DNA of 41,232 bases, from the IMG/VR virus record IMGVR_UViG_3300028832_002797; one strand, written 5' to 3'. The position numbers and the translations under genes were made by a program. This document shows, piece by piece, positions 3,079 to 18,685 of the stretch. Position 1 is the stretch's first letter, and each line of letters starts with the position of its first letter. Under the pieces are notes generated by a model. It was not told where the DNA came from. It saw nothing but the letters and a program-made list of their open reading frames with translations, and searched no databases. The DNA comes from a virus. Its lineage: Duplodnaviria > Heunggongvirae > Uroviricota > Caudoviricetes.

Positions 3079-3593
3079 TAATCTACCTTTATATTAACGG
3101 TTTTCTCAACATATTCAACATTTGCCTTTTTATAAGCACGATACTTCTTCCAGTAATCCTTTGTATCTTCAAACAATGTATAGTACCAGCCACGTTTGTC
3201 CAATTCAATAAACAATGCATACATTTCTTTTTGGACCTTTTCACCAGCCCAACCCCAACCGCGACGGTTACGATATTTTTCTTCAATGGCATAGACTTTA
3301 TCCCATAGTTCCTTGTCTTTACCAGTCAAGTCTTTAATATAGTACTCTTCTTCATAGTCGGTATTGTGAAATTTGTAATTTACTACAGCACAGATATGAT
3401 GATCATCCATTTCTCGACCATTGTGCTTGTGAACATATCCAAACTGATACCAATAATTTTTCGGTAATGTCGCATCAAAATCCTTCTTAATCGGATTTTC
3501 ATCCATATAATGCTGTGCCGATTTGATAGAAGAATAACCCATGCCCGCTTTGTCTAAGCTAACACCTTTATACATTGGAAAAATACGTTTCAT
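3078..3593 (-). CDS. Hypothetical protein
   Basis: 171-aa ORF with 1-nt stop/start overlaps. Confidence 0.65.
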   Translation of the reverse strand: MKRIFPMYKGVSLDKAGMGYSSIKSAQHYMDENPIKKDFDATLPKNYWYQFGYVHKHNGREMDDHHICAVVNYKFHNTDYEEEYYIKDLTGKDKELWDKVYAIEEKYRNRRGWGWAGEKVQKEMYALFIELDKRGWYYTLFEDTKDYWKKYRAYKKANVEYVEKTVNIKVD

Positions 3594-4783
3594 TAGAAAG
3601 CCGCCTTAAAATTATAAACTGGTTTGATAATCTTTTCGATAGTGCAAGTAGGTTCGATATTCAACATGATTTCTTCCATAGGCTTATAGGCCATAGGGCT
3701 TTCATCGATAGTAGCAGAAGAAACACAAGAAGTGAAAATTCCCTTCATTGCTTCCTTATAGTCCTTCATGGAAATAGAGTTCTTAGCATCAGCACGAGTC
3801 ATTAGACGACCAGCACCGTGAGGAGCAGAATAGTTCCAATCCGGATTTCCCTTACCGACACAAATCAAAGAACCGTCACGCATGTTCATTGGAATGATTA
3901 CACGTTCGCCTTCCTGAGCAGAAATAGAACCTTTGCGGAGAATCATGTTCTTGAGGTCGATATAGTTATGGATAGTTTCGAACTTTTCTGTAACCTTGAA
4001 ACCCATTTCCTTGACGATTACATCAAGCATAGCGGCACGGTTCAAAGCGGCGAACTGTTGGACGATTTCCATATCGTGCAAATAGTTAGCCATGTGCTCG
4101 CCAGTGAGGTAGGAAAGATTCTTAGGAACAGAGAAGTGGTCATAATCCTTCATGAGTTCCTTAATTTCAGCGTCAGTCTTTCCCTGAGCCTTATACTTGG
4201 AGATTTCAGCACCACGAATAGCGGTCAGGTCAGCACAATCCTTGATAGCGAGATTCTGCCAGTATTCACAGGTAGCGACACCTAAATGGCGAGAACCAGA
4301 ATGGATAACGATATAAAAAGCACCATCGTCGTCCTTATCGACTTCGATGAAGTGATTACCACCGCCAAGCGAACCTAAACTCAGAAGTTCTTCACGTCTC
4401 ACGTCAGCAATGAGTTCTTCAAACTTTTCATCGAATTCATTTGCGAAACGGTGACGATTGTTTCTGTGTTCCTTACCAGATGGAATCTTTTCCTTGATAA
4501 CCTTATCAAGTTTACCGAATTCAATAAACTTGTCTTTAAGCTTTGCGACAAGCATCCCGCAACCAATATCAACGCCCACAAGGTTAGGTACAACCTTATC
4601 CTTGATAGTCATAGTGGTTCCGACAGTACAATCCTTGCCCGCATGCACGTCAGGCATGATAGCAACATTAACATCGCGAGCCCAACACTGGCACATCATA
4701 TTCAAAATCTGTGAATATGCCGCATTGTCGATGTTATCTGTAAAAACTTTCGCAGTATTATATTTTCCTTGAATCTCAAGCAT
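3593..4783 (-). CDS. rtcB: RtcB-family RNA 2',3'-cyclic phosphate/5'-OH ligase
   Basis: MPDVHAG, VGVDIGCGM, GSLGGGNHFIEV, IHSGSR, HNY, RKG, SAPHGAGR; start at MLEIQG with AAGGAA RBS. Confidence 0.95.
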   Translation of the reverse strand: MLEIQGKYNTAKVFTDNIDNAAYSQILNMMCQCWARDVNVAIMPDVHAGKDCTVGTTMTIKDKVVPNLVGVDIGCGMLVAKLKDKFIEFGKLDKVIKEKIPSGKEHRNNRHRFANEFDEKFEELIADVRREELLSLGSLGGGNHFIEVDKDDDGAFYIVIHSGSRHLGVATCEYWQNLAIKDCADLTAIRGAEISKYKAQGKTDAEIKELMKDYDHFSVPKNLSYLTGEHMANYLHDMEIVQQFAALNRAAMLDVIVKEMGFKVTEKFETIHNYIDLKNMILRKGSISAQEGERVIIPMNMRDGSLICVGKGNPDWNYSAPHGAGRLMTRADAKNSISMKDYKEAMKGIFTSCVSSATIDESPMAYKPMEEIMLNIEPTCTIEKIIKPVYNFKAAF

Positions 4784-4794
4784 AATTAAATTCC

Positions 4795-5112
4795 TTAATA
4801 ATACGGTACTAAAATTACTTCCGGGCAGAATGTCCAATATGCAACAGATTCCCATTCTTCATGGTCAGAATCCTTATCATAACAAGTATCTTCTACCCAA
4901 GTCCAATCAAAATGTCCATCGTCATAATAAGCCTTACCTACAGCTCTCATTCCATAGGTACCGTCGTTATAAAGCACCCACAACATCGTACCGAGCATTT
5001 CATTAGTAGGTGCATCAAGTCGACGACGCCAACGAGTCAACGGAGTATATATAATCTTATCTTCATCCGTCAAGTTGTCGAGAACTTTCCTGTTAAACTT
5101 ATCGTAAGACAT
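4795..5112 (-). CDS. Hypothetical protein
   Basis: 105-aa ORF in array. Confidence 0.6.
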   Translation of the reverse strand: MSYDKFNRKVLDNLTDEDKIIYTPLTRWRRRLDAPTNEMLGTMLWVLYNDGTYGMRAVGKAYYDDGHFDWTWVEDTCYDKDSDHEEWESVAYWTFCPEVILVPYY

Positions 5113-8022: not shown

Positions 8023-8054
8023 GATAGATTTTCCTTTTATTTAAGTTTTCCTTT

Positions 8055-8092
8055 AATATAATAAAAAATACCCGTTTTGTCAACGGGTAATT
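8055..8092 (-). promoter_or_regulatory. Terminator-promoter cassette ending the tRNA cluster
   Basis: Stem TACCCGTT/AACGGGTA plus T6; TTGACA-N17-TATATT; 34 bp identical to 29347-29380. Confidence 0.85.
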
Positions 8093-8096
8093 TTTA

Positions 8097-8168
8097 TAGG
8101 GGCACTGCCACTCGAAGGCAGTTCCATAGGTTAAAAGCCTATTGCTTCACCATCAAAGCTTTACCCCC
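8097..8168 (-). tRNA. tRNA-Lys(UUU), atypical T-stem (C53-G61)
   Basis: GGGGGTA/TGCCCCT; D GCTT/AAGC; ATAGG-CTTTTAA-CCTAT; CTGCC-TTCGAGT-GGCAG; no CCA. Confidence 0.85.
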
Positions 8169-8177
8169 CCATGGTAG

Positions 8178-8265
8178 TTGAGGCGGCTGGATTTGAACCA
8201 GCGATGTGTCGTTAACCGTACAGGATTCAAAGTCCCGCGCCTTCACCGGACTAGGCAACGCCTCA
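8178..8265 (-). tRNA. tRNA-Gln(UUG) with long variable region
   Basis: TGAGGCG/CGCCTCA; CGGGA-CTTTGAA-TCCTG; about 18-nt variable region; GCTGG-TTCAAAT-CCAGC. Confidence 0.85.
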
Positions 8266-8269
8266 ATAG

Positions 8270-8349
8270 TACACCAGGTGGGCTTCGAACCCACATTTGC
8301 AGTTCCAGTTACGGCTAACGGATTAGAAGTCCGACCCGACTACTGGTGT
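8270..8349 (-). tRNA. tRNA-Arg(UCU)-like, D-arm missing, 23-nt variable region
   Basis: ACACCAG/CTGGTGT; 8-nt connector; CGGA-CTTCTAA-TCCG; GTGGG-TTCGAAG-CCCAC. Confidence 0.7.
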
Positions 8350-8356
8350 ATTTCTA

Positions 8357-8442
8357 TCGATGCATATGGAGTCGAACCATCCCGGACCGCCCTGGTGTTT
8401 ACTACGGGCCGGCTTATAAGACCGGTCCAAGGGAATGCATCG
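8357..8442 (-). tRNA. tRNA-Ile(UAU)-like, D-arm missing, 27-nt variable region
   Basis: CGATGCA/TGCATCG; 10-nt connector; CCGGT-CTTATAA-GCCGG; ATGG-TTCGACT-CCAT. Confidence 0.7.
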
Positions 8443-8478
8443 GTTAGTTTGTTTAGAGTGAGTAGCTCTCTCACTTCG

Positions 8479-8553
8479 TGCTGATGGTGGGGCTCGAACC
8501 CACGACTCCCATATTAAAAGTATGGTACTCTGGCCAAACTGAGTTACATCAAC
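8479..8553 (-). tRNA. tRNA-Lys(UUU)
   Basis: GTTGATG/CATCAGC; ACTC/GAGT D-stem; CCATA-CTTTTAA-TATGG; GTGGG-TTCGAGC-CCCAC. Confidence 0.93.
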
Positions 8554-8557
8554 ATTA

Positions 8558-8633
8558 TTGGGGCAGAGAGATTTGAACTCCCGAATAACGGTTTCAGAGA
8601 CCGTTGCCTTAGACCGGACTTGGCGATACCCCA
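8558..8633 (-). tRNA. tRNA-Gln(CUG)
   Basis: TGGGGTA/TGCCCCA; ACGGT-CTCTGAA-ACCGT; GGGAG-TTCAAAT-CTCTC. Confidence 0.93.
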
Positions 8634-8639
8634 GTATAT

Positions 8640-8669
8640 AAAAAGAGTTCCTGTATCGCTACAGGAACT
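8640..8669 (-). terminator. Intrinsic terminator (attenuator 2) 6 nt upstream of the tRNA cluster
   Basis: 10-bp stem AGTTCCTGTA/TACAGGAACT, GCGA tetraloop, then CTTTTT. Confidence 0.85.
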
Positions 8670-8701
8670 TCAAAACCAACATAACAATAGGATCTTGTTC
8701 G

Positions 8702-8773
8702 TTAACCCATAGCAAAACACCAGCATCTCTGCTGTTTTCTTATTTGTTTTACTTGTTTAACGAACCTTAACAT
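8702..8773 (-). CDS. Leader peptide 2, MLRFVKQVKQIRKQQRCWCFAMG
   Basis: AAAGGA RBS; codons 6-16 are AAA CAA GTA AAA CAA ATA AGA AAA CAG CAG AGA, matching the downstream tRNA anticodons. Confidence 0.85.
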   Translation of the reverse strand: MLRFVKQVKQIRKQQRCWCFAMG

Positions 8774-8790
8774 TTCTGTTTTCCTTTGTT

Positions 8791-8825
8791 ATTATATATA
8801 GTTTTTATTTTTCTTTTTTCGCTTT
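8791..8825 (-). promoter_or_regulatory. Class-2 promoter motif AAAGCGAAAA...CTATATATAAT
   Basis: GCG-N23-TATAAT. Confidence 0.7.
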
Positions 8826-8827
8826 AT

Positions 8828-8856
8828 AATATAGCAAAAAGTTTTTCTTTTGTAAA
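8828..8856 (-). promoter_or_regulatory. Sigma70-like promoter TTTACA-N17-TATATT
   Basis: Consensus; TAGGGGTTTACAAAAG is shared with the promoter at 315-343. Confidence 0.8.
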
Positions 8857-8875
8857 CCCCTAAAAAGAAAATTTT

Positions 8876-9316
8876 TTAGCGGTTATCGTTATCGATGATA
8901 ATTTTGGATTCCGGGCAGAATACAAAATTAAACAACGCTTCAGGGTCAAGGAGGAATGCCGCAAGTGTTGCAGCACTGTGAACGCTCTGATGGTCGATAT
9001 AACCAGTAATCTCGTTGACATACTTCGGGATAACAAGTTCAACCTGTTTCGAAGCGAAATATTCAACGACACTATCCCGGTTATCGTTATACTGGTCAGC
9101 CCAGGCGCCGTTCATACTGATAGCCACAAGCCAGTAGTCAATAAGCTGGCCAGGTTCTTCCAATACGTCATAACCCCAGTCATAGTTTCCATCACCTGCA
9201 GCCTTTACCATACACGGGTCTACGTGCAGGTTCGCGTATGCGCTTGCACACGGGAAACAAATCAGATGTTCAGATGAACTGTTAGTTTCGAATACTCCAA
9301 CTCTAAGTGTTTTCAT
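8876..9316 (-). CDS. Conserved phage protein with FETNSSS motif
   Basis: RVGVFETNSSSEH and GYIDHQS; family I recall as often adjacent to phage radical SAM genes. Confidence 0.65.
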   Translation of the reverse strand: MKTLRVGVFETNSSSEHLICFPCASAYANLHVDPCMVKAAGDGNYDWGYDVLEEPGQLIDYWLVAISMNGAWADQYNDNRDSVVEYFASKQVELVIPKYVNEITGYIDHQSVHSAATLAAFLLDPEALFNFVFCPESKIIIDNDNR

Positions 9317-14872: not shown

Positions 14873-15167
14873 TGTTGAACGGAGAGATCTAGCCTAGCAG
14901 GAACAACTAGACTAGACACTAACTACTTTTGGCATAAAGCGTCACGTGTCAATCTGGGGGACTTATAAACGCTCTTACGGGTCGGTCATCCTGTACTCCG
15001 GCTATATAGCGTTAGGCCATGGCGGCAAGTGCATAGTTTGCTAAGCTATGCTCGATAATCGAATCGTTTTTGGAATATACCACCGATTTTATGGTATACA
15101 ACGGCTCAGCCTCTACCGATAATGCCATTGGGTTGGATTTCGTTCCGAGGACTAAGGCTCAAATGTC
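14873..15167 (-). ncRNA. Putative structured RNA containing an ssrA-tag-like reading frame
   Basis: About 300 nt with no long ORF, GC-richer than flanks, several hairpins, starts just after a TATATT -10; frame 15012-15128 ends ANYALAAMA*. Confidence 0.5.
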
Positions 15168-18304: not shown

Positions 18305-18330
18305 AATGTATTTCCTTTTTTAAATTTTAA

Positions 18331-18685
18331 TGGACCCGTTGGGAGTCGAACCCAAGTCTTGAATAACTTCAATATCCGTTCCTACAAGCTTTCCCTTCGA
18401 ATTTACTTATTTGTCATACCTATGCCCTGAAGGTCGGCGTCAGTATAAACTAGCCTGTGATTTTCGGAAATAATAGACAGACTTAACTATTTCCTAGCCC
18501 GTTTGCGACTGGACTCTACACTCAACGGGCGAACGGTATAGGTCCAGGGTTGCTATTGATTAAGCAGCCATTGCGTATGTATTAGCAATTATTTTTTTTC
18601 AGACTTTTTAACGTGTGTTTTCCCACGTCTGAGACCACGGCTTGCAACTAATATATTCATCACCCAATCGAAACCAGGCGAGCCC
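18331..18685 (-). ncRNA. ssrA: tmRNA, tag (A)ANTYAMAA
   Basis: Acceptor GGGCTCG/CGGGTCC-A with G3.U70; TGGTTTCGA D-loop; T-arm TTGGG-TTCGACT-CCCAA; tag frame 18560-18586 after ATAATT; no CCA encoded. Confidence 0.93.

Follow-up and report, generated by a model that had tools for sequence, protein, structure and literature searches.

A candidate leader-peptide attenuator ahead of a tRNA array in an uncultured giant phage

The IMG/VR virus record IMGVR_UViG_3300028832_002797 (Caudoviricetes) comprises 41,232 nucleotides of DNA, and this whole stretch is referred to here as the window. On its minus strand, a short open reading frame (ORF) and a terminator hairpin stand directly upstream of a block of six tRNA genes. 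This leader region is likely to be a ribosome-mediated (leader-peptide) transcription attenuator that gates the phage tRNA array, a reading derived from sequence comparison and from folding models of the leader RNA. It draws on the codons of the leader ORF, which correspond to the tRNAs encoded behind it, and on a predicted set of alternative helices that would respond to ribosome position. The decisive evidence is the presence of matched leaders at other tRNA arrays, each written in the codons of its own array.

Anatomy of the leader

All features of the unit lie on the minus strand. A promoter scan places a sigma70-like early promoter (TTTACA-17 nt-TG-TATATT) of the hairpin-plus-promoter cassette type at 8856-8828. 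It is followed by the TATATATAATA motif common to the leaders (8800-8790), the Shine-Dalgarno sequence AAAGGA (8787-8782, 8 nt upstream of the ATG) and a leader ORF of 23 codons plus stop (8773-8702), which encodes the peptide MLRFVKQVKQIRKQQRCWCFAMG and has its regulatory codons at positions 6-16. Four regions with alternative pairing partners can be recognized from this point onwards. Region 1 (AGTAAAACA, 8753-8745) lies within the regulatory codons and is predicted to pair with region 2 if the RNA is free of ribosomes. Region 2 (TGTTTTGCTATGGG, 8719-8706) occupies the final codons of the ORF, is invariant across relatives and has either region 1 or region 3 as its partner. Region 3 (8669-8656) consists of the terminator 5' arm (8669-8660) and its GNRA loop (GCGA, 8659-8656), with 8665-8656 forming the predicted contact with region 2. 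Region 4 (8655-8640) consists of the terminator 3' arm (8655-8646) and the T tract (8645-8640, tail CTTTTT). The resulting terminator has a 10-bp stem, the GCGA loop and a calculated free energy of -13.7 kcal/mol.

The first tRNA gene, tRNA-Gln(CUG), has its 5' end at 8633, and the hairpin ends 12 nt upstream. The promoter scan detects no sigma70-like promoter on this strand between the leader ORF and the first tRNA, and there is no room for a tRNA promoter in the 12-nt gap because any -10 element there would start transcription inside the tRNA. The transcription unit is closed by a terminator hairpin at 8089-8069, within an element (8089-8055) that also holds the -35 box of the next gene's promoter. 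A preliminary description of this DNA, made from the sequence alone, had listed the promoter, the AAAGGA ribosome-binding site, the 23-codon ORF, the 10-bp GNRA terminator and the adjoining tRNA. Each of these was found again at its place on the minus strand, and the scan agrees with the earlier view that the tRNAs have no independent promoter. The leader has the layout of a leader-peptide attenuator, with a Shine-Dalgarno sequence, start codon and short ORF close behind the promoter and an intrinsic terminator between the ORF and the regulated genes.

Codon match between the leader and its array

The regulatory codons 6-16 of the leader read AAA CAA GTA AAA CAA ATA AGA AAA CAG CAG AGA. With the codon set read by the array defined as AAA/AAG, CAA/CAG, ATA and AGA/AGG, 10 of these 11 codons are read by the tRNAs encoded downstream, which gives the run of cognate regulatory codons that characterizes leader-peptide attenuators. 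Across the leader ORF, array-read codons account for 11 of 22, compared with 13.6% in 56 long ORFs of the window (binomial 5e-5). Excluding AAG, which is absent from the leader, lowers the background to 7.8% and gives p = 2e-7. A scan of all six frames for ATG-started ORFs of 15-45 codons yields 273, and the leader ORF is the only one of them with a best-of-11 score of 10. The codon series and its ten matches had been pointed out in the preliminary description, and both hold with statistics that exceed chance. The AAA, CAA, ATA and AGA codons used by the leader are the rarer synonyms in this phage's own genes.

Matched leaders at other tRNA arrays

A second attenuator, paralogous to the first, is located in the window at 343-105 on the minus strand. 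It consists of a promoter (343-315), the motif (272-262), an ORF (242-180, MTFTMNTNTVNPNNPEVLQD), a region 2 (191-181, CTACAGGATTA), a terminator (144-114) and a T tract (113-105). Asn, Thr or Pro codons make up 11 of the 19 codons of this leader (p = 2e-5). The first element behind it is a tRNA-like gene (104-28, minus strand), after which the array runs off the window; the Asn/Pro/Thr array that belongs to this attenuator is seen whole in the relative L042. A further leader rich in these three amino acids is found in the relative L007 (peptide MTFMKNTNNTNPTNPGVLLD), and the replacements within its run only interchange Asn, Thr and Pro.

The largest relative, of 411 kb, carries 53 tRNA genes (Rfam matches above cut-off) that are sorted by amino-acid blocks. 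The unit of motif, Shine-Dalgarno sequence, ORF and terminator stands ahead of five further blocks in this genome, namely Phe/Glu/Ala; Asp/Arg/Lys-CUU/Gly/His; Trp/Leu/Ser-GCU; Asn/Pro/Thr; and Tyr/Cys/Met/Ser-TCN. In five leader/array pairs of this genome, a leader has 0.46-0.67 of its codons read by its own array, compared with 0-0.21 for the other arrays, and only the true assignment among the 120 leader-to-array permutations reaches the observed sum (1/120). The correspondence extends to individual codons. Lysine is written AAA before Lys-UUU (the window leader) and AAG in 5/5 cases before Lys-CUU, while serine is written AGY in 5/5 cases before Ser-GCU and TCN in 5/5 cases before Ser-GGA/UGA/CGA.

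The same arrangement is present in the distant published lineage of the Prevotella megaphage Lak-B7 (MK250026.1), where a leader with the core GMHPVCGMVHMFPCGGGRPM and a terminator stand ahead of His/Pro/Arg/Arg/Gly/Gly/Cys/Met tRNAs. A second Lak-B7 leader has 29 of its 36 codons read by its own large array and 3 of 36 by the other array. A dependence of leader codons on the tRNA set had been put forward in the preliminary description as something to look for in related phages, and it is borne out by these non-homologous leaders, which are written in the amino acids of the arrays that they precede.

The leader of the Tyr/Cys/Met/Ser block in the 411-kb relative (L045:1772-1990) has an unusual reading frame, in which MTHQLYTY is followed by an in-frame TAA and then by a further 22 codons with a high share of Cys, Ser (TCN), Tyr and Met. 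The in-frame TAA could be a mutation, a boundary between two ORFs or a site of stop-codon read-through. A copy of this leader was sought in two fragmentary relatives to check the TAA and was not found.

Predicted folding and the switch

In the minimum-energy fold of the ribosome-free leader, AGTAAAACA (8753-8745) pairs with TGTTTTGCT (8719-8711), a helix of GTTCGTTAA and TTAACGAAC encloses this pairing, and the terminator is left free. The nested helices that had been drawn earlier for the untranslated leader are present in this fold. The predicted anti-antiterminator is the pairing of AGTAAAACA with TGTTTTGCT, which lies inside the regulatory codons.

The switch was modelled with truncated transcripts, in which the RNA is cut just before the terminator 3' arm and a ribosome is represented by a 29-nt footprint. 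With the footprint on the regulatory codons, the main antiterminator helix forms between TTGCTATGGG (8715-8706) and CCTGTAGCGA (8665-8656), the latter comprising bases of the terminator 5' arm and the GNRA loop. It is extended by AAC:GTT and CAAGATC:GGTTTTG, and at -16.3 kcal/mol it is more stable than the terminator at -13.7 kcal/mol. The probability that the terminator 5' arm is paired upstream is 0.07 with no ribosome; it rises to 0.81-0.83 when codons 4-12 occupy the A site and is 0.07-0.15 when the A site is anywhere from codon 14 to the stop codon. The stall-versus-stop contrast of 0.69 is matched by 0/150 dinucleotide shuffles, and the switch is retained when the transcript starts just after the TATATATAATA motif. 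The antiterminator suggested in the preliminary description (GAAC-AAGATC/GGTTTT-GAA-GTTC) survives as the inner extension of this helix; it is not the main helix, and its sequence is not conserved in relatives. A calculation by RNAduplex with the 10-nt 5' arm alone underestimated the antiterminator of this Lys/Gln/Ile/Arg (KQIR) leader, because the pairing extends into the terminator loop.

In silico, the leader offers mutually exclusive 1:2, 2:3 and 3:4 pairings. Region 1 falls among the regulatory codons and region 2 lies at the stop codon, and the modelled geometry is that of the trp attenuator. Two other variants of the leader form the same antiterminator with unrelated spacers, at -17.4 versus -12.1 and -21.5 versus -17.1 kcal/mol for antiterminator and terminator, respectively. 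The variant from L008 carries a T-to-C substitution in the 5' arm together with a compensating substitution in the 3' arm; the former converts a G-U pair of the antiterminator to G-C. The enclosing helix of this variant becomes ATTTGTC:GACAAAT. The non-homologous leaders follow the same plan, in that the best partner of the terminator 5' arm is found within the final 3-5 ORF codons (-11 to -12.8 kcal/mol; p = 0.004-0.05 against shuffles). Two of these non-homologous leaders also have a significant stall-versus-stop contrast (reached by 3/150 and 5/150 shuffles).

Relatives of the leader

Three sequence variants of the leader were identified: the window type (also in L050), the 411-kb type (L002/L042 and L047-L049) and the type of L008/L009. 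The ORF is kept in all three, as the preliminary description had expected of homologous leaders, and substitutions are synonymous or remain within the Lys/Gln/Ile/Arg codon set. Between the window and 411-kb types, the stretch that begins at the promoter and closes with the ORF (through ATGGGT) is nearly invariant and exceeds in conservation both the Lys tRNA genes and the neighbouring protein (71% identity). The leader ORFs of the window and L008 differ by 9 synonymous and 3 non-synonymous changes, and two of the three replacements in L008 (GTA to ATA and AGA to ATA) either keep a codon within the regulated set or bring one into it. The arrays that follow the three variants vary in order and content, always within Gln, Lys, Arg and Ile. 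The L008 leader has AAG and AGG codons, and L008 also encodes Lys-CUU and Arg-CCU. Pattern scans for more diverged copies of the leader returned only the three contigs already known when applied to viral contigs, and the scan of a single metagenome gave four close relatives.

In L008, the attenuator terminator and the array are separated by an inserted 242-residue ORF (L008:4690-5480), which carries a TATATATAATA motif of its own, and the insertion leaves a remnant of the tRNA-Gln 5' end, CTGAGGTATC.

Proposed mechanism and alternatives

In the proposed mechanism, RNA polymerase would start at the early promoter and perhaps at the TATATATAATA motif too, and a ribosome would load onto the 23-codon leader ORF. 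Slow decoding of AAA, CAA/CAG, ATA and AGA would hold the ribosome on codons 4-12 or thereabouts, where it covers region 1. Region 2 (TTGCTATGGG) could then pair with the emerging terminator 5' arm and loop, so that no terminator forms and the polymerase reads into the six tRNA genes. Fast decoding would instead bring the ribosome to the stop codon, where it covers region 2; the terminator would form, and transcription would end at 8645-8640. In the event of no translation, region 1 would pair with region 2 and the terminator would form as well. The net effect would be negative feedback on the supply of those same isoacceptors. That termination and read-through respond to translation in this way, and the condition that slows decoding, we infer from the models.

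The attenuators may also have a wider role, which is put forward tentatively. As an isoacceptor-specific bank, they could sense damage and counter host defences: particular tRNAs would be depleted by anticodon nucleases of the host or by a shut-off of the host that the phage induces, ribosomes would stall on the matching leader, only the block of replacement tRNAs would be transcribed, and the neighbouring RtcB-type RNA-repair ligase would cooperate. The link to the anticodon nucleases PrrC, AriB and RloC is speculation, with an RtcB gene 4 kb away as the only contextual hint.

Several observations weigh against the attenuator. The model assumes a host that uses sigma70-type promoters and intrinsic terminators. 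In equilibrium folds of the full-length leader, the terminator is present in all or nearly all ribosome states, and the switch would therefore depend on the co-transcriptional order of folding, as in trp. Folding with a ribosome footprint, as had been proposed in the preliminary description, thus reveals the switch in truncated transcripts and keeps the terminator in the full-length equilibrium fold; the latter was set aside as the relevant test, and replaced by the former, because attenuators act kinetically. Some paralogous leaders form the predicted antiterminator even when ribosome-free (P = 0.75-0.87), without the full three-state logic. The specificity at the level of codons is partly ambiguous because Lys-UUU and Gln-UUG also read G-ending codons. 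The covariation rests on few events, since only three variants of the leader were found, and the Ile-UAU gene of the array is atypical. Some arrays in relatives contain internal promoters, or an endonuclease gene inserted into them carries a copy of the motif, and either would bypass the attenuator. Metatranscriptome contigs from one study cover 8266-8480 and parts of neighbouring genes in the window; the leader and terminator fall outside them, and this coverage is uninformative for or against attenuation.

A competing explanation is that the leader is a stand-alone small gene, which encodes a micropeptide or a small RNA, has a promoter and terminator of its own and is translated to no regulatory effect, and that the tRNAs are transcribed by constitutive leaky read-through or phage antitermination. 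Single-gene promoter/terminator cassettes abound in the window, the peptide is conserved (the 9 synonymous versus 3 non-synonymous changes given above), and the terminator always wins at equilibrium, all of which such a gene would account for. It is nevertheless unlikely, as it leaves unexplained why array-specific peptides match the amino acids and even the isoacceptor codons of their arrays, why replacements remain within the regulated set and why the 3' end of the ORF is complementary to the terminator 5' arm in non-homologous leaders.

The leader could also be a translated sensor with another output, in which the hairpin guides the processing of the tRNA precursor or sets its stability, or in which ribosome position gates the access of Rho or an RNase. 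A gap of 12 nt separates the hairpin from the first tRNA's mature 5' end, and tRNA precursors require 5' processing. This is rather improbable, given that a T run of the kind found at intrinsic terminators follows each of the leader hairpins and that the alternative pairing targets precisely the terminator 5' arm.

The same attenuator anatomy might instead report amino-acid starvation, through tRNA charging, and not tRNA abundance or damage, thereby tying tRNA synthesis to host nutrition. A stalled ribosome cannot distinguish a missing from an uncharged tRNA, and the classical multivalent attenuators sense amino acids. Extra tRNA, however, would not relieve amino-acid starvation, and the match is at the level of isoacceptors (AAA versus AAG, AGY versus TCN), which makes this quite improbable. 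Finally, although the leader is A-rich and short ORFs are common, a chance ORF within an A-rich leader can be given almost no credence, as it is contradicted by the codon and folding statistics and by the repeats of the unit at other arrays.

The tRNA array and the shared motif

The regulated array (8633-8097, minus strand) consists of six genes: tRNA-Gln-CUG (8633-8558), a first tRNA-Lys-UUU (8553-8478), an Ile-UAU-like gene (8442-8358), tRNA-Arg-UCU (8349-8270), tRNA-Gln-UUG (8265-8177) and a second tRNA-Lys-UUU (8168-8097). The preliminary description had named all six as tRNAs. ARAGORN recovers the two Gln and the two Lys genes, and tRNA-Arg-UCU is called by Rfam only, at 33.8 bits, whereas the Ile-UAU-like gene is called by neither ARAGORN nor the Rfam tRNA search. 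The latter gene scores 26.9 bits against the tRNA-Sec model, under the cut-off of that model. It has a 7-bp acceptor stem, a CUUAUAA anticodon loop, a T arm and a long extra region, and it is without an ordinary D arm. It is probably a real but atypical tRNA, because relatives retain it with compensatory changes in the acceptor stem.

Other members of the arrays are unusual as well. The Arg-UCU and Ile-UAU-like genes have a reduced D arm and an extra region of ~20 nt, and an odd Arg-ACG gene of similar kind is present in a relative (L043:10175-10255). The Gln-UUG tRNA is 89 nt long, with a 14-nt insertion in the variable region. The tRNA-like gene behind the second attenuator (104-28; L042:11281-11361 in the relative) has an abnormal anticodon arm in the form of a long closed stem, whose loop of 4 nt is centred on CTGCAG, or on ATGCAT in the relative. 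ARAGORN assigns no anticodon to this gene, which could be a processing handle or a decoy.

The TATATATAATA motif occurs twice in the window, both times inside leaders. In the 411-kb relative, it occurs nine times, always on the coding strand, with six occurrences in leaders, two at ORFs inserted into arrays and one at a non-coding stretch. The ORF behind one of the array-internal copies reads as an HNH-type endonuclease (256 residues, L042:11509). The leader of Lak-B7 array 1 also carries the motif. The idea of a leader-specific RNA element is weakened because the motif is also found upstream of the array-inserted ORFs and the non-coding stretch. The motif is probably a second promoter (-10-like), with an element of the 5' untranslated region as the alternative. 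At the non-coding stretch (G001 139899; L042:15900-16400), the motif is followed by several hundred ORF-less bases that are GC-rich and structured-looking and lie just upstream of a tRNA-Met. This stretch may be an unannotated non-coding RNA.

Genome setting

All genes in the 41-kb window are on the minus strand, and its GC content is ~38%. The nearest GenBank records are the Prevotella Lak megaphages, with ~35% amino-acid identity across a radical-SAM protein, and close relatives consist of IMG/VR contigs of up to 411 kb together with gut and rumen assemblies. On the basis of these relationships, the source of the window is judged to be an uncultured giant phage of the gut or rumen. Searches of GenBank phages at the DNA level by megablast and blastn with the tRNA-leader region returned no match, and the 166-residue downstream neighbour used as a search query returned no loci.

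About 20 cassettes in the window consist of a terminator-like hairpin whose loop carries the -35 sequence TTGACA, followed by a T run and TATATT; examples on the minus strand are 13066-13027, 6450-6414, 8089-8055, 22965-22930 and 39467-39434. These cassettes resemble the promoter-early stem-loops of T4-type phages. An RtcB-type RNA ligase gene is located at 3593-4855 on the minus strand (PHROG 1075, E = 2e-134), 4 kb from the tRNA array, and it fits a phage that repairs or replaces damaged tRNAs. The window also encodes a transfer-messenger RNA at 18328-18685 on the minus strand (Rfam, 134 bits), for which ARAGORN gives the tag peptide ANTYAMAA. The orphan Rfam family cow-rumen-2 RNA has a full-length match at 14954-15057 on the minus strand (91 bits), which places this RNA within a giant phage. 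In three relatives of a neighbouring gene (L054-L056), the gene caller fused the 145-residue neighbour with the next ORF by reading TAG as Gln (with_TAG=Q), and a stop codon may be recoded in some relatives.

Implications

If the proposed mechanism is true, tRNA supply would follow a new regulatory logic, in which the ribosome reports a shortage of particular isoacceptors and the phage responds with those same tRNAs. Such feedback would explain why tRNA genes in huge phages are grouped into amino-acid-specific blocks, and how such phages deal with mismatched codons, with host shut-off or with defences that cleave tRNAs. The idea is easily testable because the element is self-contained and ~200 nt in length, and it can be checked by anyone because it is present in published Lak megaphage genomes. 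A further use of the leaders could be as compact, programmable sensors of how fast chosen codons are decoded.

Comparison with known systems

The closest parallels are the leader-peptide attenuators of amino-acid operons, above all the multivalent ones, with the trpL, hisL, thrL and ilvGMEDA leaders of E. coli as examples. These share with the phage leader a promoter-proximal short ORF with a run of regulatory codons, the exclusive 1:2, 2:3 and 3:4 pairings, a stop codon that adjoins region 2 and an intrinsic terminator ahead of the regulated genes. Unlike the E. coli leaders, the phage system would regulate tRNAs and not enzymes, its codons are drawn from four amino acids in an isoacceptor-specific manner, and it is phage-encoded in several paralogous copies, one per array. 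The Rfam amino-acid leader families (Trp, His, Leu and Thr) have no match at E <= 1 in 8050-8900; as modelled, the phage leader works like these families, yet it is not a member of them by sequence.

Leader-peptide attenuation of a component of the translation apparatus is established for E. coli pheST, where the pheM leader is read out through decoding speed. The two systems differ in that the pheST target is the synthetase for one amino acid, whereas the phage targets are tRNAs for several. In T-box riboswitches, the status of a tRNA likewise chooses between terminator and antiterminator upstream of translation-related genes. A T-box, however, binds uncharged tRNA directly and is ORF-free, whereas the phage leader has a Shine-Dalgarno sequence and a conserved ORF, and the T-box riboswitch model has no match in the leader region.

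The tRNA cluster of phage T4 resembles the present array in being transcribed from an upstream promoter and in having homing-endonuclease genes nearby, among them segB in the T4 tRNA region. To our knowledge, no leader ORF or attenuator has been described for that cluster. Genes for tRNAs are generally considered to be controlled at their promoters, through growth rate and the stringent response, and not through the decoding speed of their own codons. According to the preliminary description, no attenuator of this kind is known for phage tRNA genes, and a full-text literature search likewise turned up no account of tRNA genes, whether of phages or of bacteria, under leader-peptide control. The proposed system differs from the known attenuators in the use of tRNAs as the regulated product and in the tuning at the level of isoacceptors over a bank of paralogous units.

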